64,000 bases of DNA from Leucoraja ocellata (taxonomy: Eukaryota). The DNA lies in the NCBI GenBank assembly GCA_036785375.1, contig JAWMAR010000134.1, forward strand, positions 62,001 to 126,000, given 5' to 3'. Positions 7,750 to 63,491 of the stretch are shown here, piece after piece. Position numbers and translations under genes: made by a program. The first letter of the stretch is position 1. Each line of letters starts with the position of its first letter. A model generated the notes under the pieces. That model did not search any database. It saw only the letters and a list, made by a program, of their open reading frames with translations, and had not been told where the DNA came from.

Positions 7750-8985
7750 CAGGTGCACAACCTTTTATCCGAAAGCCTTGGGACCAGACACTTGTCGGAT
7801 TTCGGACATTTTTGGATTTCAGAATGGAAGATTTTTAGCGTAGATTAGGTAGGTAGCGCGGGCGGCTTGAAAAGTCTGGAGCGGCTGCCTCCTCCCCGGA
7901 GACCGGGAGAATCATTGCATAAATGTTAGTCAGTTAGTTTGGAGGGATTTTATGTGGTGGTGGTGGAGTAGGGGTGAAGGGGGAAACTTTAATTCTTAGT
8001 CCCCTACCTGGTCGGCGACTCCCAACCTCGCGGAGCTGGGGGCTCCGTCCGGCCGCGGGCGGCGCCGGTTGTAGCTCCGACCCCGGCAACTCTACCCCTG
8101 GCTGCGAGGCGCTCCAAATCCAGCGCGGCCCGCGGCCGGACATCCCAGCTCCGGGAATGTCGGGAGTCGGCGGCGTCGCAGAGCTGGGATACCAGCGGGG
8201 AGCGGGCAATGCCTTACCGGGTCGCCGTGCGGCAAGCTCCGGAGCGCTGTGGCCGCCGATTCCCAACATTCGCGGAGCGTCGCTGGATTTGGAGCCGCGG
8301 AGCTGGGGGCTCCGTCCGGCCGCGGGCGGCGCCGGTTGGAGCTCCGACCCCGGCAACTCTACCCCTGGCTGCGCGGCTCCAAATCCAGCGACGCTCCGCG
8401 GTGTTGTGTGTCGGCGGCCACAGTGCTCCGGAGCTTGCCGCACGGTGACCCGGTAAGGCATTGCCCGCTCCCCGCTGGTATCCCAGCGCTGCGACGCCGC
8501 CGACTCCCGACATTCGCGGAGCTGGGGCGTCCGGTCGCGGGCCGCGCTGGATTTGGAGCGCCTCGCAGCCAGGGGTAGAGTTGCCGGGTCGGAGCTACAA
8601 CCGGCGCCGCCCGCAGCCCCACCGGCCACAGCGCTGCGGAGCTTACTGCACGGCAACCCGGCAAGGCATTGACCGCTCCCCGCCTCTCCGACCAGGTAGG
8701 GGACTAAGAATTAAAGTTTACCCCTTCACCCCCCCCCCTTCACATAAAAGCCCTCCAAACTAACTGACTAACATTTAAGCAATGATTTACAGATGTTTAA
8801 GCGTCTCCCGGTCTCCAGGGAGGAGGCAGCCGCTACAGTAGTACAAACCTGGGTTGACCGTGGGTCGTTTTGGGTCAAGTTTGGCGCCAAACGCGATCTT
8901 TGGTGCGCAGACGACATCTGGAAAAAATGGCCGGTTTTCGGAGCTTTTCGGTTTCTGGAACTCCGGATAAAAGGTTGTGCACCTG
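7750..8985. mobile_element. Tc1/mariner-pogo (Tigger-like) MITE with GC-rich fold-back interior
   Basis: TIR CAGGTGCACAACCTTTTATCCG / CGGATAAAAGGTTGTGCACCTG; TA TSD at 7748-7749 and 8986-8987. Confidence 0.92.
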
Positions 8986-17282: not shown

Positions 17283-18510
17283 ACTAGACCAAGTGGGACC
17301 CTTTGGGTCGCTGTCACACGGGAGGGCTGGTCCCCCAACGCAATATTCCACCACTCACCCATAGCCCCCAACTGCGCAGGCATGGCGGACGGGTTCCTGT
17401 TGTGACGCCAGAGATCCCCGTTGTGATGCGTCATGGCAACCCTCCCCAACTGCGCCTCGCCATCCCTCTTCCTACCTTTATCCTCCATTTCCCTCATTCC
17501 CAGCACTCCCTCCTCCTCCTCTTCACCGTCCCTCTTCTTTCCCCTCTCCTCCTCTCCCTTCCCTCACCCCTCCCTCCCCTTTCCCCTACCCCCTCTCCTT
17601 TCCCCTACCCTCAGTCACTCCCTCCCTCCCTAGCCCCCTCTCTCTCTATCTCCCCCCCCTCCCTCCCCACTCCTCACCTCCCCTATCCCACCCCCACACT
17701 GCCTCCCGACCTCCCCCACTGCCCTCCTCTCCCTCTATCCCCGACCCTACCTCCCCTACTCCCCCCCTCTCCCTCTATCCTCCCCCACTCTCTGTCCTCA
17801 CCTGCCCCACTTTCCCCTCCCTACCCTCCTCCTCTCCCTCTATCCCCCTGCTCCCCCACTACTCACCTCCCCCCCCCCTACTCCCTCCCTCACCCCTCCC
17901 TCCCTCTCCCCTGCCCCCTCTCCTTTCCACTACCCTCGGTCACTCCCTCCCTCCATAGCCCTCTCTCTCCTCCCTAGCCCCCTCCTCTCCCCCTGCTCCC
18001 TCACCTCTTCCCTGTCCCATCCACACTCTCCCTCCCGACCTCCCCCACTGCCCTCCTCTCCCTCTGTCCCCCACCCTATCTGCTCCCCTACTCCTCACTT
18101 CCCCTCTATCCCAACCGCCCACAATGAAAATCACGATGTTTTTTTTTAAATGANNNNNNNNNNNNNNNNNNNNNNNNNNNNNNNNNNNNNNNNNNNNNNN
18201 NNNNNNNNNNNNNNNNNNNNNNNNNNNNNNNNNNNNNNNNNNNNNNNNNNNNNNNNNNNNNNNNNNNNNNNNNNNNNNNNNNNNNNNNNNNNNNNNNNNN
18301 NNNNNNNNNNNNNNNGTTAAATTGAATTTTTTAATGTAAATTAAATTCGGGATCCCGTTGTGAGGTGGAACGCTGGTGACGAGCAGGGCAAAAAGGAAAA
18401 GAGGTTTTGTAAAGCGGGTTTTGTACAGTTTAAAATGTTAATAACTTGTAAAATATGGCGTCAATCTGAATGAATCTTAATTTACATTACGGGACAATGG
18501 TGAGTAAGGC
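17283..18510 (-). mobile_element. Non-autonomous Helitron-like element (3' end at left; 5' end probably in the gap)
   Basis: Minus strand ends GACCC-AAA-GGGTC hairpin, CCACTTGGT, CTAG|T, the canonical Helitron 3' signature; C-rich minisatellite interior. Confidence 0.65.
18154..18315. other. Assembly gap
   Basis: Run of N. Confidence 1.
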
Positions 18511-20899: not shown

Positions 20900-21298
20900 A
20901 AGAGGTGCCAGAATGCTGCCTTGGTTAGAGGGTATTTGCTATATGGAGAGGTTTGACAAACTGGTATTGTTTTCTCCAGAGCTTCAAAGACTGAGGGGAA
21001 AGACTAGGTATATAAAAAAGAAGGGGCTCGACCCAAAACATCACACATTCCTTCTCTCCAGAGATGCTCCCTGTCCCGCTGAGTTACTCCAGCATTTAGT
21101 GTGTACCTTAGGTATATAAAATTATAAGTCGTAGGGTAGACAGTCAGAACCATTTCCCCATGAAATGTCAAAGACTAAAGGGCATAACTTTAAAGTGAGA
21201 GGCAAAGTTTAAAGGAGATTTTATTTTAACAGACAGGAGCCAGGAGCTGCTGCTGGGTGTGGTGGTGCAGACACGATAATGGTGTTTAAGAGGCTTTT
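20900..21298 (+). mobile_element. CR1 3' fragment carrying a single Penelope arm (21018-21108)
   Basis: atggagaggtttgacaaactggtattgttttctc; insert gaaggggctcgacccaaaacatc...ttactccagc flanked by duplicated taggtatataaaa. Confidence 0.65.
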
Positions 21299-21314
21299 AC
21301 AGTGCATTCAGAAA

Positions 21315-23788
21315 GTACTCGACCTCCATCCTTGCCTCTTCCCTCTCTCTGATCATAAGCTTATACGGTTCACCATCCCTTCTCCAACACCTCGCCCCCG
21401 CTTCCTCCGAGAATCTAAAATCCATTGATCCCCACCATCTCTCTGACCTGCTCTCCACCACTCTCCCCCTGGACTCAACCCCCATCTCACCTGATGATCT
21501 CACAAACCATCTCAACTCCACCTTGTCTACCTCCCTTAACACTATGCCCCCCCTCAAAACAAGAACCGTAACTTTCAACACTTCTTCACCTTGGTACACG
21601 CCTGCACTTTGTAAACTGAAACAGACTGGTCGCCGACTTGAACGACTCACAAATAAATCATCTGTCACAGTCCACCTTGAAGCTTACAAACTCCACCTTA
21701 CTGACTACAAAGATGCCCTCATTGCTGCAAAATCTGCCTACCTCTCCTCCATATTCACCGATCCCTGCCTAAACCACAGAACCCTCTTCTCAACAGTGGG
21801 CAACCTCCTCAAGCCTCGAGCCAACACTCTCCCTACCTCTACTCCGGATCTCTGCAACTCATTCCTCCACTTTTTCGCTGATAAAATCAGCACCATCTAT
21901 CAATCTTTATCCCCTGTACCCGACTCCCCAGCATCTACTCCACCACCTACCAAGGCCCCCCTTTCAACATCTCCACTGACCTCCTTACCCCTCCTCCACA
22001 CTGCTTCCTCTCCCAGTTTGACCTGATCACCCCTATTGAAATCTCCAAACTCATCAGCTCTTCCAAACCCACTACCTGCTCCCTCGACCCTCTCCCCACT
22101 CCCCTGCATGAGTCCTGCCTCCCCGTTCTCTGCCCCTACCTCACTAATCTCTTCAACTCCTCATTGTCCCAAGGAATTGTCCCCTCCGCTTTCAAAACTG
22201 CTGCTGTTACACCAATCTTAAAGAAACCTGGTCTTGATCCCTCCTCTCTCATGAACTATCGCCCAATCTCAAACCTCCCCTTTCTTTCAAAAATCCTGGA
22301 GCGTATCGTTGCATCGCAACTTCATTCCCACCTCCTTGCGTATAACCTACTTGAACCCCTCCAATCTGGCTTTCGCCCCCTCCATAGCACAGAAACTGCT
22401 CTCCTCAAAGTCCTCAACGACCTCCTCACCTCTGCTGACATCGGTTCACTCAACATCCTCATCCTCCTCGACCTGAGCGCAGCCTTCGATACAGTGAACC
22501 ATAACATCCTGCTCACCAGACTCAAAGACCTCAGCATTGAAGGCTCTGCACTCAGCTGGCTCCGTTCCTACCTTTCCAACAGATCCCACTTCATCTCTCT
22601 CCACAACCACACCTCTGCTACAGCCACAGTCACTCAAGGCATTCCCCAAGGCTCCGTACTCGGCCCCCTCCACTTCATCATCTACATCCTCCCCCTTGGT
22701 CAGATACTCTGCCACTTCAACCTGGACTTCCACTGTTACGCTGATGACACCCAGATCTACCTCGGCACCACAACCCCCCCCCCTCTCCCATATCAACTCC
22801 TGTTTGTCAGCTATAAAAACCTGGATGCAACATAATTTCCTCAAACTCAACAGCGATATGACAGAATTCCTCCTCATAGGCTCCAAATCCACACTCAGCA
22901 AAATCAATAACCCCACTCTCACCATCGACGGCACCACTGTCTCCCCATCTCCCCAGGCCCGCAACCTTGGCGTGATCTTTGATTCCACCCTCTCCCTTGA
23001 GCCTCACATCCGCAATGTCATTAAAACCTCCTTTCATCTCCGCAACATCGCCAAACTCTGACCCTCTCTCACACCTCCCACTGCTGAAAGACTCATCCAT
23101 GCCTTCATCTCCTCCCGACTAGACTACTGCAACTCACTTCTCCTTGGCATCAGCTCCACCTACATCAACCGACTCCAACTGGTCCAGAACGCAGCCGCCC
23201 GACTCATCACCCACACCAAATCCTGGCATCACATTACTCCAGTCCTCAAACAACTTCACTGGCTTCCCATCTCCCACCGGATCAACTACAAAATCCTGAT
23301 CCTCACCTACAAAGCCCTCCACCATCTGGCCCCCCCCAAATCTCACTGACCTCCTCTCCCCCTACCAACCCTCACGGTCCCTCAGATCCACATCTGCCGG
23401 TCTCCTCTCCATCCACATATCCAACCTCCGCAGTTTTGGGGACAGAGCCTTCTCCAGGGCAGCTCCCAGGCTCTGGAACTCCCTCCCCCAACTGATCCGC
23501 AATTCCGTGTCCCTCACCATCTTCCAGTCCTGCCTCAAGACCCATCTCTTCACCTCTGCCTATCCTTAGCCCCACGTCCCCCTCCCTTTTCATCTGTGCA
23601 TTAATTGCCTCATATTGTGTTTTGTATTGAATTCTGTCTTTACTTTGTGTACTAGTCATGTCTCTACTATTTATTTCATTCCCCTTACATGTTTTTCTCT
23701 ACCTGCTAAATTTTTGTAAGGTGTCCTTGAGACTCTTGAAAGGCGCCCATAAAATAAAATGTAGTATTATTATTATTATTATTATTAC
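21315..23788 (+). mobile_element. 5'-truncated L2 LINE with frameshifted RT
   Basis: NYRPISNLPFLSKILE, QSGFR, LLDLSAAFDT, PQGSVLGP, YADDTQIY, LHWLP motifs; (TAT)n tail at ~23765-23788. Confidence 0.93.
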
Positions 23789-37450: not shown

Positions 37451-39243
37451 TTTAATTAAAATGTGTCTCTATATTTCCGGACTGTCATCGTTGCTACCCT
37501 CATAAGCATCTCCAACTGCTTAATGTTCTGTTTGATGAGCTCCCAATCTCAATTCAGTATCTCACTTTAGAATTCAACTACCCTTATGCTGAGTTGCATT
37601 ATGTCCCATGTGGTCATCTCTCTTATCCTCACTGCTATGCACTGATCACTACTCCATTGCCCTGAATTTAATTCAAGTTCTCATCTGTAAATTCTTCCTT
37701 TGGCTTGGCAAACTCAGCTGTGCAACCCATATGCACCCTCCACGTAGCCTTCAATCCTCAAATCTCCTCACCACAGCTAGCAAAATATTTGTGGTTGACA
37801 AGATTCTGTGGCTCGAATTTTTAAAAACATTAATTATTGTGAATAACATGTTAATTATATTGCTGATTCATTTTTAATGTTTATTTATTAGAAACATAAT
37901 TAGAGTGATAATACTGAGTTTTAAAATAACCAAAAAGCCCAAAACTTATTACTCGGCTGTAATGAGACTAAAAAGTTCTTGTATTGTGCTCTCTCATAAT
38001 AAAACATGGTTTGAATCTTAATTGTTCTGAGTTTACTGTGAGAAGTGATGGCCTGAATTAAACCGACTAACAGCTGGCGGTTCCATACCACGGGCTCTCA
38101 GCCTTGTGTGGTAAAGCTTGTTTCAGACTTTGCATGCATGCTCTTCCAAATGTGAGACTTGTTTGACCGCCTGCTTTGTCACTGGTCACAATGGTGAGTT
38201 CAGCAGTGGAGCACTGATGTGTTCGATACTGGGACGAGATGTACTATGTGTACAGCTTGGCACAACGGCTGGCTGAGATCCAAAGCCAAACTCATTCCTT
38301 TGAACGGGTGAATAACCATCTGGGCAAAATAAGAACAGATATGTGTTTAAATTGTTGATGATTAAATTGGAGTTTTAAGCAATAAAAAATATTATTTTTG
38401 AACTAGTTTTATTTGTACTATTTAAATGTATTACAATTTTTTAAAGTTTTTTAATCTCTTTGACTATCAGAGAGAGGTATTTGGTTCAAAATGTTTATTA
38501 CTGGCAACTGCCATAGTCCATCAGGGTGATCTCTCAGAGAGGGCCGATCACCTTGTAAAGCCCACTTCAGCTCATAGGAAGGCTCTCAGCAGAGAGCGAT
38601 ACTAGAAGGGTAAGAGTAGCCACCGCAGATGGTATGCCCAGGCAGTGGGCTGAGTCAGCATAATCTGGCCCATTAGTTCAATAGAATACGGGGAGAGATT
38701 TTGCTTTAGCCGTATCTCCTCCAAACCTACATGTTCTACTTTTATTGATGTATAATTAGTCTTTATTAGTTTGTTTAATTAACCAAAGAGAATATGAATT
38801 TGACAGTGCCTAAGAGCTTTAATTCGAGTCTCGGGAGGACAATTTATTATATATTCAAGTGGTGCAAGCCAGTTACTAGCAAGTTGGACAGCTGACGAAC
38901 ATAAGTTTTGGCAGTGGTTGAATAGAGACACTGGGCTGTCAAATGTTAACTGAGTTTATTGTTAGTATTAATTCATCAATCTTTGGAATCTTTATAAGGC
39001 ACAAAATCAATTAAAATGTTCTTGATGAAAAGCAAATTGTTCCATTCCCATCCACAAAAGGAATTTTTTTTATTCAATAATAAAAAATATATGGTTGCGG
39101 GAAGTCTTCAGAATTGAGCAATATAGAGTGTAAGGAATAGATAAAAATAAATAGAAACGGGACGATCGAGTGAAGTTTGAATTAAGTTTGAATCGTTTAG
39201 GAACTGGAATTATGATTTAGCATTACATGTTTTTATTGTGTAA

Positions 39244-39870: not shown

Positions 39871-41940
39871 ATTTTTTTTTTTCTTTTTTTGTTAAAATGT
39901 TTTTAATTAGAAGTGCAATAAGTTGCAGTAATACACACCACATATATCTTATTACATTTGTTGTACCCCTTCATTTTTGAACTTTAAAAAAGATAGAAAT
40001 AAAAGAAGTAAGGAAAGTGAGAAAGAGTCGTGAAGGTGCAGGAAAGTGTTGGGAAAAGAAAGCCCATTAGAAAAGGAGTTAGAGAAGAAAGTTAAGAAAT
40101 AGACCCTAGAAAAGAAAGAAAGAACGAAAGAGTAACAATCGCTCTATTATGGAAAAAAAACTCCGCAAAAAGGGATATAACAACCATATTTTTCACCCCC
40201 CATTACCAGATCTTGGCACCATTTATTTTTTTAAATTACTATTGAACCTTATGCTTGTAATAAGTCCATAAATGCAGACCACGTCTTTTGGAAGTGGTCT
40301 GCTTTGCCTGCTAGGAGGAGTCTCATCTCTTCCAGATGTAATGTTTCGAACATGTTTGAAATACACATTTTTATTGTTGGTATAGGAGCATTTTTCCAGA
40401 ATTTGAATATAAGCTTTTTTCCCATTATTAGCCCGTAATTAAGTAAATTCTTTTGAAACATGTTTAGTCCAGGGCTACCTTCCGTTATTCCAAAAATAAT
40501 CCATTCTGCTTTTGGTATGAGTTTTATTTTAAATAGTTTTGTGAAGATTTCAAATATTTCATTCCAGAATTTTTGGATTTTTATACAAAAAACAAAAGAG
40601 TGCGCTATGGTAGCTTCATGAGACTTACATTTATCACAAATGGGTGAGACGTTAGGGAAAAGTTTATTTAGTTTTGTTTTTGAATAGTATAGTCTAATTA
40701 ATGTTTTGAATTGAATTAGAGTATGTCGTATATTGTTCGAGCATTTATGCACATATAGTAAGTGTTTATCCCAGCTCTCTTTTGAGATTTGTATAGCTAG
40801 TTCTTGTTCCCAGTCTCTTCTAATACCATCAGTTGTAGGTATTTCTATATTTAAAATAGTGTTGTATAAGTATGATATTAGGTTTGCTGATTCGGCCTTT
40901 GTCTTTATTGCTTCGTCCAGTAAGTCTGGAGGCATGTTATGATAGTCTTTTCTGTATTTTTTCAGATAGTCACAGAATTGAAGATATTTAAAATATTGAT
41001 TATTTCTCAAATTATATTTCAGTTGTAATTGTTAAAATGATAATAATTTTTCGAATTCATACAAGTCTCCGAGCGTTTTGATTCCTATTCTTTCCCATTG
41101 TGTAAATGATTTATCTATAGTAGAAGGTTTAAACAATGGATTATTGACTAATGGCATTTAAAGAGATAGATTTCTTAATTTTAGATTCTGTTTTATTTGT
41201 TTCCAAGTTCTAATTGCGCTATGTATGATTGGATTTCTATTGTAATTTTTGTTATTCAGATTCATTGGTGAAAGGAGAGTCACTCCTATATTACACGGAG
41301 AGCAGTCCTCTCTCTCCATTACAATCCAGTCCACCTGCTGGGCAGAATTGTCCAGCAGTTGAATCATATTTTTAATATTTACTGCTCAATTATAGTACCT
41401 AACGTTAGGGAGCGCTAGACCACCCAGCTCTTTGGGTTTACTAAGGTGTTTTCTTTGTATTCTGTGGGATTTATAGTCCCATATAAAATTTGTAATGTCT
41501 GAGTCTAGTTTTTTGAAAAACTTTTTTGGAAGATATATAGGTATTGATTGAAATAGATATAGGATTTGTGGTAGAAAGATCATTATTATAGCATTTATTC
41601 GACCTATTAAAGACATCGGGAGCATTTTCCAGAATTTGATTAGACTATTTAGTTTCTTAAGTAAGGGACTATAATTGGCGTTAAACATAGCGTGATAGTT
41701 TCTAGTAATTTCAATTCTCAAATATTTAAATTTTTCTGTGGCTATTTTAAAGGGGAATTTTAAGAGATGCGTTAAGTCTTTCGGTTTAATCGACATAATT
41801 TCACTTTTGTTCCAGTTTATTCTGTATCCTGAGAAAGATCCAAAGTCCTCAATTAGATTTAGTATGTTTGGTACACTAATTTGGAGTTTTGTGATGTACA
41901 GTAGTACATCGTCTGCATATAAAGATATTATGTTATTTGT
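39871..41940 (-). mobile_element. 5'-truncated L1 LINE (ORF2 from YADD to the C-terminus, 3' UTR, polyA)
   Basis: FKYLRIEIT, GRINAI, GGLALPN, CDKC...H...C knuckle; polyT at 39872-39890; TSD AATGTAAGAA at 39861-39870 and 41941-41950. Confidence 0.93.
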
Positions 41941-42542
41941 AATGTAAGAATTTAATCAAAGTAATATGCTATTTAAATAATCTGAAATTAATACTTTTAT
42001 AACTATTTATGCTTTTACATAATCTGATACTCCGCAGCAACAAGTATTTGATAATGAAGCAAAATGTCACAAAGCATTGACAGATGTTCCCAAACAATAT
42101 TTGATACAGGTACTGGGGAAATGGCCAAAATTGGGACAAAGAGATAGAATATCATAAAATAAAGAATTAGTGACTAAGATGTTTAGGAAGGGGTTTGAAA
42201 GATTATAGAATTGACAATTGAGTAGATGGTTGTGACGGTAGAGCATTTAAATCCAGCAATAATCAAGAGACCAGGATTAGTTGATTGACCAATAGCCAAT
42301 CTAGGATGCACTCAAGCACATGGGAAATGGAAGAATCAATGTTGTTAGAAAATAGGCAGTGGTATTTTTGATGATCTCAGATTTATGGATTCTAGAATTA
42401 GGGAGGGGACTGGAACAGTGTTGGAGTAACCAAATAAAGAGGTAACAAAGGCAAAGATGAGAATATCAGCAAGAGATAGGCTCAAACAGGGACATAGTTA
42501 AGACCTGGGCCTCTGTACCACCCTTTGCAACTGAATCCTTAA

Positions 42543-42683
42543 CTTCTGCTTCTTGCATATGGCGTGCACAGCTTAAAGTTATAGGACAATTTGTTCTATT
42601 TGATCTTATTTGATTATGCACGCTGGATTGATTGCATTCGTCGAAACAGGGCAGATCACGTGAAGGTTGCAATCTTCCACCCC
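42543..42683 (-). mobile_element. Ingi/Vingi-type short retroposon (SINE)
   Basis: ~140 nt; 5' HDV-like fold; 3' end ...GCACGCCATATGCAAGAAGCAGAAG; no pol III boxes. Confidence 0.6.
42630..42683 (-). ncRNA. HDV/CPEB3-like self-cleaving ribozyme fold
   Basis: P1 GGGGUGG/CUGCCCU, P2 GAUUGCA/UGCAAUC, P3 ACC/GAU (one mismatch), L3 UUCACGU, J4/2 CGAA. Confidence 0.75.
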
Positions 42684-42689
42684 AATATT

Positions 42690-43715
42690 TAACTTACTCA
42701 TTGGCAGACCTCAATCAGTGGCCATCAATAACAACATCTCCTCACTGACCATCAACACAGGTGCACCTCAAGGCTGCATGCTTAGATCTTTGCTCTGCTT
42801 TCTTCACATCATGACTACGTCTTAGCGCAGCTTCAATGTCATCTATAACTTCACTAATGACATCATTGTAATTGGCCGTATCACTCAACAGCATAGGGAC
42901 AGATAAAGTTCAGGTGCTTGTGTAGTATAGTGTCTCTTGTTCAGTGTCTGCACCGCCAAGGACTGAGTGGTGACTTCAGAAAGGAGAGGTTGGGAGACCA
43001 CCTGTCCATTTTTGTTGGTGGTGGAAAGAGAAAGCAGCTTCAAATTCTTGGGCATTAACATCTCAGACGATCTGTCCCATGCCTAGCATATGAATGTGCC
43101 CACAGAGAAAGTGCAAAGTATAGAGAGATTCTGTAAGTCTCTGAATACTCTCACAAGCCTTTAGGAATGTACTATAGCATGTAGCCTGACTGATTGCAAC
43201 ATAATCTGGTATGGCAATTCCAACGCACAGGAACACAGAAGGCATCAGAGAGTGGTGGACTCAGCTGTGCCCATCAAGGCCACAACCCATCCCTTAATTG
43301 AAAGCATCTACACGAGGCTTCTCAGGAAAGTGGCATCTATCACCAAGGATCCCTACCATCCAGGCCATATTCGCTTCTCCTGCTACCATTGGACAAGAGT
43401 ACAAACCCCTGAAATCTCACACTACCAGCTTCAGGAACAGCTTCTTTCCCACAACTATCAGGTTATTTAACAAACCTGAGAAAACCTAATCATACATGAA
43501 CAAGGGAACACTACAGTTCCACCTCTCTCATTACCATGGACTTTTATTTATTTTTTGCACTAATGTTCTTTTAAACAGTCTTTTAGAATATTATGTATAA
43601 TTTGGTTTATGTGTGTCTGAATCTATGTGCCTGTGATGCAACTACAAGCAAGATTTTTCATTGTACTTGAATCTCACCATACTTGTGCATATGACAATAA
43701 AGTCAACTTGACTTA
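42690..43715 (+). mobile_element. Degraded Rex/Babar LINE
   Basis: TINTGAPQGC, FTNDI, FKFLGINIS, TTSFRNSFFPTTIRL; gacaataaagtcaacttgactt tail. Confidence 0.75.
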
Positions 43716-46700
43716 AATTGAACGGATTATAAAGCGATCCCCAGCTTTGTTGTAGATATTTAATCTAATACCTTTATAACGTTCTTCCATTTACATTGTG
43801 AAACAATTAGCTTAGTAAATGCAGAAAAATCCACATTGAACACTTTCAATGCCTGAAAGTGAAACTGCTCCATCTTTGAATAAAACTAACTCAGTGCATC
43901 AACTATTTATATCCAGTTATTTTGATTTATCCTTAGCAGGTAACTTTGATGTTTTATTTCTCAAAGGGCATTGAGAAGATTTAATTTGGTATGTAACAAG
44001 CAGATTATTCAAATCAATTTTGTGTTTTTATAACTTCAGCAAAAGGCAAATAAAAAAACTTGCAATCTCATTTTGTTTCCCAGATTCCCAACACACTGCA
44101 ATGTGGACACTGTTACCTTTGATGCACCAATTATGAGTAACATGCATGGAGTGTCAAGACTTTAATCAGGCAGACTGGATATGAATAGATAACCAACTAT
44201 ACACCAAAATGGGTGACCATATTGCTGTAAATGGCTGATATTCATTTTACGCACATGACTTATGTTTTAATTTCCGTCACTGCATTTTTATTGAGAAATT
44301 ATCTATTTTCAGGAAGAGCTACTATAGGTTCTGTGGCCTTTGCTGTTTAAATTGCCTGTTATCTACACAGATTGTCTTTGTTTACTATTTTCTGTGAGTC
44401 GAATGAATTAATTAATACGTTTATTGGCCATGTATGTACACATATAAGGAATTTGCCTTGGTGATCCGCTCGCAAATAACAACACGACATACAGTAACAA
44501 TTAAGAATGACACATAATACTTTAAACATTAATAATAAAATATTATAGTTTAAACATATGAATGATATAAAATACCAAAGCAAAAGGAGGCTACAGACTT
44601 TTGGTTATTGCGTTGAGCTACTGCTCATGGAAAAAAAGCTGTTTTATGTCTTGCTGTGGCGGCATTGACAGCCCGGAGTCGCCTTCCAGAGGGAAGTGCT
44701 TCAAAGAGTTTGTGGCCAGGGTGAGAGGGGTCAGAGATGATCTTGCCCACTCGCTTCCTGGCCCTTGCAGTGTACAGTTCGTCACTGGGGGGGAAGGTTG
44801 CAGCCAACAACCTTCTCAGCTGATCGGACGATTCGCTGCAGGATGCCATGCTTGGTGGCTGAGCCAAACCAGACCATGATGGAGAAGGCGAGGACTGACT
44901 ACGATGGCAGTATAGAATTGGGCCATCATTGCCTGTGGCAGATTGTGTTTCCTCAGCTGCTGCAGGAAGTACATCCTCTGTTGTGCATTTTTGACTGTGG
45001 ATTTGTTTTCATATCCTAGCAGATGATGGTTCCAAGGAACTTAAAATACTCCACAGATGTGACTGTGGTGTTGTTGATGGTGAGTGGGGGGAGGGGAGGA
45101 GAAGCTCTCCTAAAATCTACTATCAATTCCACTGTTTAAAGAGCATTGAGCTCCAGGTTGTTACATAGGCACCAGGACACCAGCTGTGTTACTTCCTGTC
45201 TGTAGGCAGATTCCCCCCAATCCTGGATCAGTCCAATCATGGTTATGTCGTCTGCAAACGTGAGAAGCTTGACAGAGGAGTCTGTGGAGGTGCAGTCGTT
45301 GGTGTAGAGAGAGTAATGGACCCGTACCACTTAGGCGATTTATTTAGGTAACTCCAGGAGACTATGCGGTCACCATATGTTCCATGTTGTTGCCGGGGAG
45401 TCGCCTTCATGGTCGTGAGTAGTTCCCGCATTCTCTTTTTTTTTTTTTTTTTTTTAAATTTTATTTTTATTAGAAGTACGGTAAATTACAATACTACACA
45501 ACACATATATCTTAATACATTTTTTGTACCGCTTCATTTTTTTTTTTTGAGCTTTAAGAAAAAGGTAGAAGTAAGGAAAGTAAAGAAAGTGCAAGAGAGT
45601 CGTGCAGTGCAAGAGTGTAAGGAAAAGAAAGCCCCTTAGAAAAGAAGTTAGAGAAGGAAGTAAAGTGAGAAAATAGACCCTAGAAAAGAGAGAAAGAGAA
45701 AATAGAAACAATCGCTCTATTATAACATTAAACTCCGCAGAAAGGGGACTACCAACCAAGTCTGTTTTTGTTATTTTACCTCCCGTTACCAGGTCCTGAT
45801 TCCGCTTATTTATATATTTGTTTTTTTTAGATTACTATTGCACCTCATACTTGTAATAGGTCCAGAAACATAGACCACGTCTTTTGGAATTGGTCTGCTT
45901 TACCTGCTAGGAGGAATCTCATCTCTTCCAGATGTAATGTTTCAAACATATTTGATATCCACATTTTTATTGTTGGTGTCGGCGCATTTTTCCAGAATTT
46001 AAGTATAAGCTTTTTTCCCATTATTAGCCCGTAATTAATTAAATTCTTCTGAAACACGTTTAATTCAGGGTTACCTTCCGATATTCCGAAGATAATCCAT
46101 TCTGGTTTTGGTACCAGTTTTATATTGATCGATTTGAAAAAATATCAAATATTTCATACCAGAATTTTTGGATTTTTGTACAAAAAACGAAAGAGTGCGC
46201 TATGGTAGCCTCTTGACATAGGCATTTATCACCGATTGGTGAAACATTAGGGAAGATTTTATTTAATTTAGTTTTTGAATAATATAATCTATGTAATGTT
46301 TTAAATTGGATGAGCGTATGTCGTACGTTGATCGAACATTTATGCACCTGTAGTAAATGATTATCCCAGGTCTCTTTTGAGATTTTTATAGTTAATTCTT
46401 GTTCCCAATCTTTTCTAATTCCATCTGTTGTGGGTATTTCTATGTTTAAAATGATATTATATAGGTACGATATTAAATTAGCTGATTCCGCCTTGGTCTT
46501 CATTGCTTCATCCAATAAGTCGGAAGACATATTATGATAGTCTTTTGTGTGTTTTTTCAGATAATCACAAATTTGAAGATATTTAAAATATTGGTTATTT
46601 TTCAAATTATATTTCAGTTGTAGTTGTTGAAATGATAGTAAATTCCCCAATTCATACAGATCTTCGAGCGTTTTAATTCCCATTCTTTCCCATTGTATAA

Positions 46701-48353
46701 ATGATTTGTCTATGATTGATGGTTTAAACGATGGATTATTGACTATTGGTATTAAAAGAGATAGGTTTCTTAATTTTAAAGTCTGTTTTATTTGTTTCCA
46801 TGTTCTTATTGTGTTATGTATAATTGGATTTTTATTATAATTTTTATTATTCAAATTTGTTGGTGAGAGGATGGTCGCTCCTATATTACTCGGGGAGCAG
46901 TCCCCTTTTTCCATTACCATCCAGTCCGCCTGCTGTGCAGAATTGTCCAGCAGGTGAATCATATTTTTAATATTTACTGCCCAGTTATAATACATAAAGT
47001 TAGGGAGCGCTAGACCCCCCAGCTCTTTTCGTTTATTAAGGTGTGCTATTTGTATTCTATGGGATTTATAATCCCATATAAAATTTGTAATGTCTGAGTC
47101 CAATTTTTTGAAAAACTTTTTTGGGAGGTATATAGGTATTGATTGAAATAGGTATAGAATTTGTGGTAAGAAAACCATTTTAATAGCATTTATTCTGCCT
47201 ATTAAGGACATCGGAAGTGTTTTCCAGAATTTAATCAGATTATTCAATTTCTTGAGTAAAGGATTATAGTTGGCTTTAAACATATCCTGGTAATTTCTAG
47301 TAATTTCAATTCCCAAATATTTGAATTTTTCTGTAGCTATTTTAAAGGGAAATTTCCGAAGCTGTGTTGAGTCTTTTGGTTTTATCGACATAATTTCACT
47401 TTTGTTCCAATTTATTCTATATCCTGAAAAGGATCCAAAGTCCTCAATTAAGTTTAATATGTTTGGTATACTAATTTGTGGTTTTGTGATGTACAGTAGT
47501 ACATCATCGGCATATAGGGATATTTTATTCTTTGAGTATTTTGTATTATAACCATAAATATCCGGATGTGTTCTTATTTTTTCAGCAAGGGGTTCAATTA
47601 CCAAAGCAAATAACAGCGGTGATAATGAGCATCCTTGTCTATTGCCCCTTGATAGTTCAAATTTCGAGGATAAAATATTATTAGTTAATATTCTAGCCGT
47701 AGGTTTGTTATATAAGTTTTATCCATGCGATAAAGTTTTCTCCCAATTGGAATTTTTGCAATACTTTAATCATATAATCCCATTCTACTTGATCAAACGC
47801 TTTTTCTGCGTCCAGTGAGATAATAGATAATTCTTCGTCGTGAGGTTTATGTGAGTGCATTATGTTAAGCAAACGTCTCAAATTATTGAATGAGTGTCTC
47901 TTAGGTATAAATCCTGTTTGATCTCCATTTATTAATCTACTAACGTACCTGCTTAATCTACTGGCTAGTGTTTTCGCTATTATTTTTTGATCCGTATTTA
48001 ACAAAGCAATAGCTCTATATGAGCCTGGTTCTTCTATGTTTTTATCTTTTTTAAGTATTAATGTGATCGTTGATTCTGCTAATGTTTCGGGTAAGCTTTG
48101 CTCTTTAAAAGCGTGTGTATACATTTTCTGTAATCGTGGGGTAACTATATCATAAAAGGCTTTATAGAATTCACTACTGAATCCGTCTGGTCCTGGTGTT
48201 TTACCATTCTTTAGTGTTTTTATTGTGTCTTCTATCTCCTTAGAAGTAATTATTGCTCCTAGTTCCTCTTGTTCCCTCATTTCTAATTTTGGAAGGTTAC
48301 AATCTTCCAGAAATTCTGAAATTTTATTATTATCTATTGACGTTTTAGATGTA

Positions 48354-51300
48354 CAGGTGCACAACCTTTCATCCGACAGCCTTGGGACCAGACACTTTTC
48401 GTAATTCAGAATTTGTCGGTCTTCGGAATGGAAATTTTTTTGCGTAGATTTTAATGGCTGGCTCAGTGGTAGAGTGCTCGGCTCATATCCGCAAGGTCGC
48501 GAGTTTGCGCCTTGATCCCGGCAGTTACTCGGTCGCGAGTTTGAGTCTTCAATGTAGGTTTTTTTTTGCAGAATAAATGTTTGTATGAAATGCAGTGTGT
48601 TGAATGAATTCCTCAATTTGTAAATGTGCCCGCAGCATTGAATCACCTCCCGCACTCATGTCACCCTAACGGGGCTACATGCCCTTAGGCGATCTAAGGT
48701 CGCGAGTTTGCGCCTGGATCCCGGCAGTTACTCGTCGCGAGTTTGAGTCTTCAATGTAGTTTTTTCTTGCAGAATAAATGTTTGTATGAAATGCAGTGTA
48801 GGAGAGGTGTACTGACTGTGTGGGCAGAACTTTGGAAGTGATTGCCCACCAGTCTAAAAAGCCGCTGTGTCTCCCTGTCCCTGGGATAGCAGGGGGCGAT
48901 CAAACAGCACAATACCCCCCTCCCCCTCCAACTCCAGAGGAATCCGCTCCCCGATGGGCCGCTACGGCGACAAGTGGCAGTTTACCCACAGCCCGAGCTG
49001 CGCCTCCTCATCCGCCACCCCAAGACTTACCTTGCACACCATCAGGTTCGGCCCCTACGTGTTCCTCTGGGGTTGGAGCGGGGCTGGGCCGGAGTTGCTG
49101 CTGGCTGTGGGTCTCTGGGATCTCCGTCCTTGCAGTGGGCCTGGGGGTTCCTGTTGGTCCTGACGTCACCGGCCACCCCCATGGACAGGAGCTGAGACTG
49201 GGAACTGTACCGCCCTTGCCCCCTCCCTCTGCAACTGCAAACAACCCCACTCTCCTGCAAGGGCGGTACAGTTCCCGGAGGATAGCAGGTGGCCGGAGAC
49301 GTCAGGACCAACAGGAACCCGCTCCCCGATGGGCCCCTACGACGCCCCGAGCTGCGCCCCGTCATCCGCAACCCAGGTTCCTAAGTAGTTGGAGCGGGGC
49401 TGGGCTGCTGTTGGCTGTGGGTCTCTGGGATCTCCGTGCTTGCGGTGGGCCTGGTGCTCGACGTCCAATTGGTCCTGACGTCTCCGGTGACTCGCACCGA
49501 TCTGCTGCCATCGCGGACGTGAAGACAGTACAAAGCCCCCGCGCCGGTGCAATGAGCGGGGAGCTGGAGAGGGGAGGGAAGGGGTCACACACATGGCCGG
49601 GAAGCAGAGGGGTGTAGATGGGGGTGGTGACAGATGGGGCCAACAATGAGTGGAGAAAGACAGAAACACCGACGTGCAAAGGAGACCTACAACAATGCAT
49701 GATCTCTCTCCCGTGGCAGGTGACTGTCGCTGGGAAACTGAAGGGAGCGACAATCTGCTGCTGCCTCCCTGAGTTAAAGAGTTCCCACGGTAGACTCACG
49801 ATACATAGGCGGCCTAGCTCGGGGATTCTTGAATCCCCCGAATAAATAATAAAGACGAGATAAACGTTAAGTAAAACTTTAAACATAAACTGGTGAGCTT
49901 TGGTGTGCAGACGACATCCTGGAAAAAATGTCCGGTTTCTTCCAGGTAGGCGATATACCCTCCCGGGCAATATACCCTCCACTTCTCTTTTATGAAGGGG
50001 ATTTAGTTCCCCTTTTTTCGAGGACCGACCGGAGGTTCCACTGTCACCTCTGCGGGCCGCCCTCGGTGAACGCTAATTCAACTTTGTCTTTGGATTCCTA
50101 CTCTCCCGCGCAATGTACCCTCGGCTTCTCTTTTATGAATGGGGATTTAGTTCCCCTTTCTTCGAGGACCGACCGGAGGTTCCGCTGTCACCTCTGGGGG
50201 CCGCCCTCGGTGAACGTCCTGTCTCCCTGTCCCTGGGATAGCAGGGGGCCATCAAACAGCACAATACCCCACTCCCCCTCCAACTCCAGAGGAATCCGCT
50301 CCCCGATGGGCCGCTACGGCGACAAGTGGCAGTTCGCCCACAGCCCGAGCTGCGCCCCCTCATCCGCAACCCGGGTTCCTCTGGAGTTGGAGCGGGGCTG
50401 GGCTAGAGTTGTTGCTGGCTGTGAGTCTCTGGGATCTCCGTGCTTGCAGTGGGCCTGGGGGTGGGTGTCCTGATGAGGGGGCGCAGCTCGGGCTGTGGGC
50501 GAACTGCCACTTGTCGCTGTAGCGGCCCATCGGGGAGCTGCTTCTGGTAGTCCTGACGTCTCTCAGCTCCTGTCCAGGGGGATGGCCGGAGACGTCAGGA
50601 CCAACAGGAACCCGCTCCCCGATGCGCCGCTACAGCGACAAGTGGCAGTTCACCCACAGCCCGAGCTGCACCCCCTCATCCGCAACCCGGGTTCCTCTGG
50701 AGTTGGAGCGGGGCTGGGCTAGAGTTGCTGCTGGCTGTGAGTCTCCGGGATCTCCGTGCTTGCAGTCAGTGTCGCGTTGGTCCTGACGTCTCCGGTCACC
50801 CCTCTGGACTGGAGCTGAGACTGGGAACTGTACCGCCCTTGCCCCCTCCCTCTGCAACTGCAAACGACCCCACAGTTCCCAGTCTCAGCTCCTGTACAGG
50901 GGGGTGGCCGGAGACGTCACAGCCCGAGCCATCACCTGCTGCCCCTATGGGGACAGCGGAGAGCGTGTTCCTCTGGAATTGGAACGGGGCTGGGCTGCTG
51001 CTGGCTGTGGGTCTCTGGGTTCTCTGTGCTTGCAGTGGGCCTGGGGGTCGGTGTCCCGTTGGTCCTGACGTCTCCGGTGACTGGCACTGGCTCCGGCGTG
51101 AAGAAAGTGCAAAACCCCCGCGCCAGTGCAATGCGCGGGGAGCTGGAGAGGGGAGGGAAGGGGTCACACACATGGCCGGGAAGCAGAGGGGTGGGGTGAA
51201 ACTGAAGGGAGCGACAATCTACTGCTGCCTGCACGCTGAGTTAAAAAAGTTCCCACGCAAGACTCACGATACACTGTGTATCGTGAGTCTACCGTGGGAA

Positions 51301-51551
51301 CTTTATAACTCAGCGGGCAGGCAGCAGCATATTGTCATTTATTAACCCTCCCGCGTAATATACCCTCACCTTCTCTTTTATGAATGGGGATTTAGTTCCC
51401 CTTTCTTCGAGGACCGACCGGAGGTTCCGCTGTCACCTCTGCGGGCCGCCCTCCGTGAACGTTTTCAAGGACCTTTATTCAAGGACTGAAAAAATGTCGC
51501 TATTCGGAGGTTTTCGTTATTTGGATCGTCGGATAAAAGGTTGTGCACCTG
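48354..51551. mobile_element. 3.2-kb Tc1/pogo-type MITE, same TIR family as 7750-8985
   Basis: CAGGTGCACAACCTTTCATCCGAC / GTCGGATAAAAGGTTGTGCACCTG; TA TSD; splits L1 ORF2 at ENLY|TSKTS. Confidence 0.93.
48452..48523 (+). pseudogene. tRNA-Met(CAT)-like sequence inside the MITE
   Basis: A box TGGCTCAGTGG, D arm GCTC/GAGT, loop CTCATAT closed by CGG/CCG, variable AGGTC, degenerate T arm. Confidence 0.55.
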
Positions 51552-61305: not shown

Positions 61306-63491
61306 CTAACTTCAAGAAAGTTCGTTGGGATGGAGAGTGGCATTGTTAATTCAGAAACAAGGGTCCTGAATTTAAAGAAAGGTGACTTTGAGGGTATGAG
61401 ACGTGAATTGGCAAAGATAGACTGGCAATTGATTCTTAAAGGGTTGACGGTGGATAAGCAAGGGAAGGCATTTAAAAACTGCATGGATGAACTACAACAA
61501 TTGTTCATCCCAGTTTGGCAAAAGAATAAATCAGGGAAGGTAGTGCATCTGTGGATAACAAGGGAAATCAGGGATAGTATCAAAACAAAAGATGAAGCGT
61601 ACAAATTAGCCAAAAAAAAAGCAGCCTACCAGAGGACTGGGAGAAATTCAGAGTCCAGCAGATGAGGACAAAAGGCTTAATTAGGAAAGGGAAAATAGAT
61701 TATGAAAGAAAACTGGCAGGGAACATAAAAACTGACTGCAAAAGGTTTTATAGATATGTGAAGAGGAAAAGATTAATTAAAACAAATGTAGGTCCCTTGC
61801 AGTCAGAAACAGGCGAATTGATCATGGGGAACAAGGATATGGCAGACCAATTGAATAACTATTTTGGTTCCGTCTTCACTAAGGAAGACATAAATAATCT
61901 GCCGGAAATAGCAAGGGACCAGGGATTAAATGAGATGGAGGAACTGAGTGAAATCCAGGTTAGCCGGGAAGTGGTGTTAGGTAAATTGAATGGATTAAAG
62001 GCCGATAAATCCCCAGGGCCAGATAAGTTGCATCCCAGAGTACTTAAGGAAGTAGCTGCAGAAATAGTGGATGCATTAATGATAATTTTTCAAAACTCTT
62101 TAGATTCTGGAGTAGTTCCTGAGGATTGGAGGGTAGCTAATGTAACCCCACTTTTTAAGAAGTGAGGGAGAGAGAAAACGGGGAATTACAGACCAGTTAG
62201 TCTAACATCGGTGGTGGGGAAAATTGTGGAGTCATTTATTAAAGATGGGATAGCAGCACATTTGGAAAGTGGTGAATTCATTGGACAAAGTCAGCATGGA
62301 TTTATGAAAGGTAAATCATGTCTGACGAATCTTATAGAATTTTACGAGGATGTAACTAGTAGAGTGGATAAGGGAGAACCAGTGGATTTGTTATATCTGG
62401 ACTTTCAGAAGGATTTCGACAAGGTCTACTTTCTAAGAGATTAGTATGCAAACTTAACGCACATAATATTGGGGGTTCAGTATTGATGTGGATAGAGAAC
62501 TGGTTGGCAGACAGGAAGCAAAGAGTAGGAGTAAACGGGTCCTTTTCAGAATGGCAGGCAGTGACTAGTGGGGTACCGCAAAGCTCAGTGCTGGGACCCC
62601 AGCTATTTACAATATATATTAATGATCTGGATGAGGGAATTGAATGCAACATCTCCAGGTTTGCAGGTGACACAAAGCTGGGGGGGGCAGTGTTAGCTGT
62701 GAGGGGGATGCTAGGAGACTGCAAGGTGACTTGGATAGGTTGGGTGAGTGGGCAAATGCATGGCAGATGCAGTATGATGTGGATAAATGTGAGGTTATCC
62801 ACTTTGATGGCAAAAACAGGAAAGTAGACTTATCTGAATGGTGGCTGATTAGGAAAAGGGGAGATGCAACGAGACCTGGGTGTCATGGTACACCAGTCAT
62901 TGAAAGTAGGCATGCAGGTGCAGCAGGCAGTGAAGAAAGCAAATGGTATGTTAGCATTCGTAGCAAAAGGATTTGAGTATAAGAGTAGGGAGCTCTGTTG
63001 TAGTTGTACAGACCACACCTGGAGTATTGCGTACAGTTTTGGTCTCCTAATCTGAGGAAAGAGAAGGTTCACCAGACTGATTCTGGGATGTCAGGACTTT
63101 CATATGAAGAAAGACTGGATAGACTTGGCTTGTACACGATAGAATTTAGAGGTTGGACATGCTAGATGCAGGAAGATTATTCCCGATGTTGGAGAAGCCC
63201 AGAACTAGGGGTCACAGTTTAAGGATAAGAGGGAAGTCTTTTAGGACCGAGATGAGAAAATAATGTTTTACACAGAGAGTGGAATTCTCTACCACAGAAG
63301 GTAGTTGAGGCCAGTTCATTGGCTATATTTAAGAGGGAGTTAGATGTGGCCCTTGTGGCTAAAGGGATCAGTGGGTATGGAGAGAAGGCAGGGATGGGAT
63401 ACTGAGTTGGATGATCAGCCATGATCATCTTGAATGGCGGTGCAGGCTCGAAGGGCCAAATGGCCTACTCCTGCACCTAATTTCTATGTTT
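61306..63491 (+). mobile_element. 5'-truncated CR1 LINE
   Basis: KSPGPDKLHPRVLKE, WRVANVTPLFKK, QHGFMKGKSCLTN, YLDFQK; (TTTCTATG)2 tail; possible TSD CTATGTA at 61299-61305 and 63492-63498. Confidence 0.93.

Follow-up and report, generated by a model that had tools for sequence, protein, structure and literature searches.

A 141-nt two-ended derivative of a Vingi-type LINE in Leucoraja ocellata, headed by a predicted HDV-like ribozyme

The short retroposon of Leucoraja ocellata described here consists, with a probability of roughly three in four for the reading as a whole, of the first ~75 and the last ~42 bases of a Vingi-type LINE, is likely copied by the endonuclease and reverse transcriptase of that LINE and opens with an HDV-type fold predicted to cut its RNA. 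The family is almost certainly an internally deleted, two-ended Vingi derivative (a SIDE, like NARTc and RIME). The copy under study lies in a stretch of 64,000 nt (assembly GCA_036785375.1, contig JAWMAR010000134.1, positions 62,001 to 126,000), here called the window, to which coordinates refer unless another locus is named. Papers are cited by PMC number.

The window copy is a slightly damaged retroposon copy of 141 nt at 42683-42543 on the minus strand. It is a true insertion, as shown by its 12-nt target-site duplication, of which the upstream copy (42684..42695) adjoins G1, the first base of the element, and the downstream copy (42534..42545) overlaps the final tail unit with its first 3 nt; 42695-42684 and 42545-42534 differ by 2 mismatches, and the duplicate locus L002 has 1. 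From 5' to 3' the element is composed of a predicted HDV-like ribozyme of 54 nt (42630..42683, element positions 1-54), which is common to the 5' end of the partner LINE; the remainder of the LINE 5' UTR (42607..42629, positions 55 to about 77), assigned by BLAST to full-length LINE heads; a junction segment (42585..42606, positions about 78-99), which is specific to the short family and contains a short internal duplication; the LINE 3' end (42556..42584), with the final ORF codons and stop (LQL*) and an AYACG-type motif ahead of the tail; and an (AAG)n tail (42543..42555) with one unit mutated. The arms of a predicted 5'-3' stem are located within the 5' UTR remainder (42624-42615) and inside the LINE 3' end (42570-42561). 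The preliminary description, made from the sequence of the window, had given the part after the ribozyme an AAG-like tail, and these 87 nt do end at 42543 in an (AAG)n-like sequence. A second tail-like match at 37717-37731 has no element around it and was taken as chance.

The minus-strand ribozyme sequence from 42683 was recovered by re-reading and by descriptor exactly as first given, segment for segment. In the descriptor parse of the window copy P1 joins two 7-nt strands (42683-42677 with 42654-42648), P2 is a perfect 7 bp (42674-42668 with 42636-42630), J1/2 is 2 nt long and P4 is reduced to a 6-nt linker. P3 (42667-42665 with 42657-42655) reads ACC/GAU with one C.A mismatch, L3 (42664-42658) reads UUCACGU, P1.1 is formed by C22 with the single G37 (42647), and the candidate catalytic C44 (42640) opens CGAA. 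The G1.U wobble reported earlier for P1 is present, but it is one of three G.U wobbles in the window copy (positions 1, 5 and 6). This copy departs from the family majority at 12 places, including G28A (42656) and C31T (42653) in the ribozyme, and with these two changes the best nested fold pairs the 5' strand of P2 with L3/P3 instead. Because the changes favour misfolding of the P2 5' strand, the window copy is predicted to be a weak or dead cutter, and it is itself probably a damaged passenger in repeat-filled DNA.

According to the ORF translations the window is full of LINE fragments. The element sits between pieces which we take to be L1-like and Rex1-like; the presumed Rex1-like fragment, coding for RT, occupies 42700-43400 (+) and directly adjoins the 5' end of the element. 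Fragments that we regard as L1-like are found at 40249-41955 and 46120-48655 (-), and pieces presumably of L2/CR1 type at 21280-23061 and 61596-62827. GC-rich tandem or low-complexity stretches at 7934-8710, 17288-18437 and 48802-51345 carry long spurious open frames.

A 17-mer from the middle of the element has 9,712 exact matches in the 3.44 Gb genome (reversed control 0), which as an exact-match count is a lower bound, yet the assembly holds duplicated stretches and copy counts are inflated by segmental or haplotype duplication. Many loci are paired at 96-99% including their flanks, often inverted and on the same contig (L192-L221, L084/L085, L001/L002). On contig 1 copies recur every ~2 kb or multiples thereof in two mirrored clusters (G000:C1:19261625-19279294 and 19408476-19431444), so the element there forms part of a tandem array of which an inverted duplicate exists.

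An unbiased sample was formed by the first 30 loci on contig 1, picked regardless of head and including 7 duplicate pairs. Of these 28 reach G1, where the preliminary description had placed the 5' ends (23 align from position 1 and five from positions 2-4 with altered first bases); in L209 the head lies ~220 nt upstream beyond an insertion, and one other locus is 5'-truncated. Copies extending 5' of G1, named at the outset as evidence against the ribozyme, were not seen: no sequence is shared 5' of G1 except in duplicates. A target-site duplication of 8-13 nt touches G1 in 26 of the 28 copies, compared with 23 of 756 mismatched flank pairs. The 23 independent copies have a median identity of 95% to their majority. 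With no ORF, many copies, duplications and a tail the short element has the characters of a non-autonomous retroposon.

The search for the partner LINE used a pattern in which the 3' end follows a different sequence, and then walked upstream. The pattern gave 16 matches, two of them in coding sequence (L039, L046), and the upstream walk reached full-length copies. L084/L085 are 2.78 kb long with a deletion near the end, are bounded by an equal duplication on both sides and start at G1. The undeleted LINE measures about 3.1 kb and has a single ORF, with APE (PF03372) and RT (PF00078) in one frameshifted run, a C-terminal Cys/His motif and the ORF end LDLQL. An RNase H family was matched in none of six pieces spanning RT to C-terminus and taken from decayed copies, and a PDB search with the RT piece returned 0 matches. 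By its domain content, a compact single ORF with APE and RT and, in contrast to Ingi, without RNase H, the LINE fits the Vingi type, which is defined as a compact single ORF with APE and RT (PMC13708176).

Both ends of the short element are present in this LINE. Positions 1-77 match the heads of L084, L085, L110 and L102 at 78-86% (BLAST), and positions 95/100-141 match in 25 of 28 LINE 3' loci, one more matching by head only. Positions 100-141 also match the end of full-length L084/L085; the comparison of the 3' tail with Vingi LINEs, suggested in the preliminary description, thus turns up the same last ~42 nt. The ~22-nt middle segment has no source found in the LINE, its best ungapped 17-mer match leaving 4-6 mismatches at 7 LINE loci. 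This segment, together with the SINE-like size and copy number, would suit a true SINE with an RNA-gene head and a polymerase III promoter, or the independent capture of a host ribozyme. Such an origin is extremely improbable and largely refuted by the head, which over positions 1-77 matches the 5' end of the partner LINE itself; moreover no Rfam family is found at the element, ARAGORN detects 0 tRNA genes in the window, and matches to polymerase III A and B boxes are no better than chance. The initial view of a SINE without polymerase III promoter therefore stands as to the missing tRNA head and A/B box but not as to a ribozyme joined to a borrowed tail: since a single LINE supplied both ends through internal deletion, the ribozyme is inherited from the LINE. 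The proposed dependence on an Ingi/Vingi reverse transcriptase gains support from a partner LINE that carries both element ends, and mobilisation in trans by the partner protein is likely from these shared ends; every copy of the partner that was read is broken.

A 20-mer from the LINE-type head matches at 164 places, and 30 of these loci were read. Short two-part elements make up 25 of them; two belong to a duplicated long copy, one is an inversion and two are unclear. Among the 25 short loci the head runs to three further junctions, +85 (9), +91 (7) and +96 (9). At L259-L286 at least three older short families of the same LINE, with junctions +85/+91/+96 and 120-145 nt each, can be distinguished. 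Because several distinct junctions occur among the two-part elements, internal deletion took place several times, and what survived each time was the ribozyme with the 18-40 nt behind it and the final 30-50 nt. The characterization of the element as little more than a ribozyme plus a tail has to be given up: the element invariably retains another 5' segment, for which pairing with the 3' UTR is predicted.

A genome search with the Rfam CPEB3 model (RF00622) scored 59 places, 56 of which pass the cut-off; the 42 places read constitute four further families of Vingi type, A-D. Family A includes a full-length LINE of 3.13 kb (L173:143-3270; G000:C82:979131+) with a duplication, an AAG tail and a 5' ribozyme, and family D a full-length LINE (L186) with the ribozyme at its 5' end; genome searches found no full-length family C LINE with the head in place. 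Family A looks young, its copies being 96-97% alike with long open frames. Heads passing the CPEB3 model are also located at L142, L117 and L128. The sister families reach the RF00622 cut-off, whereas the head in the window fails it, as do the short element L007 and L084 when scanned with this model. Of the descriptor searches first suggested, our own HDV descriptor thus finds the window site, but Rfam, including its CPEB3 model, stays below cut-off there; with both thresholds Rfam gave no match at the element. The HDV descriptor, written after the element had been seen, hits this element as the only site in the 64-kb window, and produces two hits in a set of 100 random sequences of equal length and dinucleotide composition.

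The fold was assessed on an alignment of 11 hand-picked, related heads from five families (S, A-D). In this alignment 95.5% of the cells are paired, against 39-50% for slid partners, and both sides have changed in 11 of 18 pairs (P2 5/7, P3 3/3, P1 3/7), against at most 3 for slid partners. Shuffles matched the count of both-sides pairs in 66/500 cases and the cell measures in 0/500 (one of five measures reached), statistics that the relatedness of the rows inflates. Covariation in P1 and P2, which the preliminary description had called for, is accordingly seen across the five families as paired changes at P2 5/7 and P1 3/7; the P1.1 pair and G1.U are invariant and thus carry no covariation signal. 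The catalytic C is present in 10 of 11 alignment rows and in 21 of 22 independent copies, and G occurs at position 28 in 21/21 independent copies with a letter there, as expected from the P3 GGU predicted for the consensus. Further features of the HDV class are the catalytic C as first base of J4/2, G.U or G-C at position 1 and the L3 consensus. Between the LINE head and the young subfamily three ribozyme changes have occurred (in J1/2; U-A to U.G; a variable J4/2 base), all of which are compatible with the fold. On these comparisons the head very probably has an HDV-type fold, and we predict with good confidence that intact copies self-cleave.

The opposite possibility is that the P4-less ribozyme is a vestige, that the head serves as a site for the LINE protein or for the 5'-3' stem, and that the G1 ends stem from rare RNAs that were reverse-transcribed. 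Wobbles in P1 and a nearly absent P4 point this way, as do the ordinary stability of the nested 54 nt (z 0.05 and 0.31) and a decay of the ribozyme resembling that of the rest of the element (4.8% vs 5.2-6.5% within the family), though nested folding is uninformative for a pseudoknot and such rates are unable to show selection. Neutral decay after insertion is expected under either model, none of the 18 pairs or the core bases has been lost, the master-lineage changes all keep the fold, and P4-less HDV-like ribozymes are active (PMC10879173), so a vestige appears quite improbable. Caution is advised by the well-folded but inactive SIDER1-beta, which demonstrates that good folds can fail to cut (PMC4035085).

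Thousands of reads of the family are present in three raw RNA runs labelled as the same species, and these reads run through G1 into varied flanks; loose ends at 42683 number 478, 287 and 284. No pile-up of read starts was detected anywhere in the three runs, whose libraries are of a kind that does not capture 5'-OH ends. The reads show read-through transcription, not cleavage. Only 1, 2 and 1 reads match the window copy at 99% or better, so the signal is one of the family and holds no locus-specific information on this copy. In RNA run X16 an abundant transcript with a variant or deleted 3' part is represented by 521 reads sharing a loose end at 42574-42607. A 3-4 fold first-mate strand skew in two runs was set aside, library direction being uncalibrated and the neighbouring LINE skewing alike.

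These data also bear on a reading of the head as mainly an internal RNA polymerase II promoter with starts at or near G1, in which the ribozyme trims read-through RNA or protects the 5' end. Pr77 combines promoter and ribozyme in a sister clade, the same 77 nt of L1Tc/NARTc having both functions (PMC3383444), starts at G1 fit promoter and cleavage equally well, and the strand skew would be sense enrichment if the libraries were forward-stranded. Yet fold and catalytic core are conserved across five families while the stem sequences change, RNA starts do not pile up at G1, and the neighbouring LINE, at low depth, is skewed in the same direction. A promoter as the main role is therefore considered unlikely, and it is probable that the predicted cleavage sets the 5' end of the element in vivo.

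Without the ribozyme an intact copy folds at z = -4.4 and the window copy at -2.1, the low value being mainly due to a 10-bp stem of positions 60-69 with 114-123. Its arms belong to the 5' UTR and 3' UTR of the LINE, where they lie 3 kb apart with one pair mismatched; the young subfamily closes this pair (G-C in 15 of 23 copies, A.C in 6). Ahead of the tail, an AYAC-type motif closes the 3' UTR of each of the five families, and the 9 nt preceding this motif were aligned with the segment 4-5 nt after P2, an anchor chosen post hoc. In this register the Watson-Crick pairs out of 9 are 8-9 in S, 9 in A, 7 in B (from one 3' end, the search having yielded the same locus with its duplicate and two further copies without a 3' end), 7-8 in C and 6 in D, where allowing one bulge gives 9, compared with a maximum of 5/9, or 7 with a bulge, in between-family controls. 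Duplex energy against 2000 shuffles is clear for S and A (0-6), marginal for D (87) and not significant for B (207) and C (357), and by the same measure other sites in the full-length LINEs pair as strongly as the predicted stem. We infer 5'-3' pairing from the complementarity across families and regard its use by the element as likely.

Head-only pieces of 60-190 nt occur inverted against 3' fragments of the same LINE, and in most of them P1 has lost its initial 3-8 nt. Among the 8 independent heads of family C, six stand back to back with the 3' fragment of one LINE (L144, L147, L222, L224, L226, L244), L142 is joined to this LINE's fragment in the same direction and one is without fragment. 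Inverted heads of the partner LINE were found at L059, L083 and L089/L091 (58 loci examined) and at L264, and others in family B (L128) and family D (L185). Twin priming is a source of inverted LINE insertions, and the inverted heads look like its products, in which the second primer would have annealed immediately behind the ribozyme; this position would be expected were the 5' end kept close to the site of insertion.

In the life cycle proposed here a host promoter reads through a copy, as the read-through RNA indicates, and self-cleavage directly before G1 would release an RNA of unit length that retains the complete head; this step is predicted from the fold, from the known cleavage of L1Tc/NARTc and R2, and from the fact that insertions begin at G1. 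Pairing between the stretch immediately behind the ribozyme and the part of the 3' UTR ahead of the tail motif would then join the ends for the LINE protein. Target-primed reverse transcription, the established mode of APE-type LINEs, would then proceed from the (AAG)n tail and yield a complete copy flanked by a target-site duplication of 8-13 nt. Both ends would be needed in cis, which would explain why at least four different deletions all keep the ribozyme, the 5' arm and the 3' end.

The kind of element is already known from NARTc, RIME, R2 SIDEs and Vingi derivatives. NARTc/L1Tc and RIME/ingi of trypanosomes likewise unite the two ends of an Ingi-related LINE, with the first base of the ribozyme being the first base of the element, and the NARTc ribozyme is active, cleavage taking place just before +1 in L1Tc/NARTc (PMC3383444, PMC4035085); here cleavage is predicted from the fold. 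NARTc measures 263 nt with a 77-nt ribozyme including P4, in contrast to 141 nt with a 54-nt P4-less ribozyme here, and the present family differs from NARTc and RIME in its large animal genome, its (AAG)n tail, a partner without RNase H match and about 10^4 copies. In the R2 SIDEs and R2/R1 hybrid SIDEs of Drosophila internal deletion has likewise brought an HDV-like head next to the 3' end of a LINE, with release from a cotranscript (PMC3414825); whereas R2 is site-specific in rDNA and rare, the present element is dispersed, of APE type and flanked by 8-13 nt duplications. Bipartite non-autonomous LINEs arise from RTE, Ingi, Vingi and R2, and Vingi, one of these four clades, is represented by Vingi-1_EE, with SINE2-1_ACar as a further comparable element; in the accessible text Vingi is listed as a source of bipartite elements, not as ribozyme-bearing (PMC5786205). 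Minimal HDV-like and theta ribozymes also lack P4 and have the catalytic C first in J4/2, but about 99% of the P4-less ones are found in phages, beside tRNAs (PMC10879173), while here such a ribozyme heads an animal retroposon. Neither Vingi ribozymes nor a 5'-3' stem of LINEs was found in the open-access articles searched; the supplements of PMC5786205 hold Vingi-derived sequences that may bear on novelty. What would be new relative to that literature is that Vingi heads are predicted HDV-like ribozymes, here without P4 and in about 10^4 copies.

The mammalian CPEB3 ribozyme (RF00622) shares L3, the single-G P1.1, G1.U and CGAA with the window head, which differs from it in P2 and P3 sequence and in lacking P4. 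Family C comes closer, with 55/62 (L131) and 55/67 (L138) positions identical to the Rfam CPEB3 consensus by hand count. As this match includes the P2 and P4 stems, which vary freely in the other families, common descent is likelier than convergence, and by sequence resemblance we hold it quite probable that the CPEB3 ribozyme is homologous to a Vingi head. The direction is likely from element to host. In mammals the CPEB3 ribozyme belongs to the host, lies in an intron and has been conserved for 100 My (PMC8233481). Humans retain a trace of Vingi (X12_LINE, PMC5753468). A transposon origin is named neither in the available parts of PMC8233481 and PMC10919898 nor in the wider literature searched. 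The near-copies at LINE 5' ends would give this well-studied ribozyme of mammals an origin that is direct and can be checked; if true, the memory-linked CPEB3 ribozyme would be a tamed Vingi 5' end.

Taken as one, we lean slightly towards a picture in which Vingi RNAs are looped and give rise to two-ended miniatures, in which one lineage cut its ribozyme down to 54 nt and dispersed some ten thousand self-cutting units, and in which a sister head became the tamed CPEB3 ribozyme. Templates for Vingi-based gene insertion contain both UTRs (PMC13708176), and the predicted stem would provide a rule for their design. Its presence across five families would be a testable answer to the clade bias of bipartite elements, the reason for which is called unknown in the available text of PMC5786205. 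If the loop model holds, the 9-10 bases following the 5' ribozyme pair with a partner up to 3 kb away and the protein takes both ends, which would explain the recurrent two-ended miniatures of the clade as well as the inverted head-only insertions.
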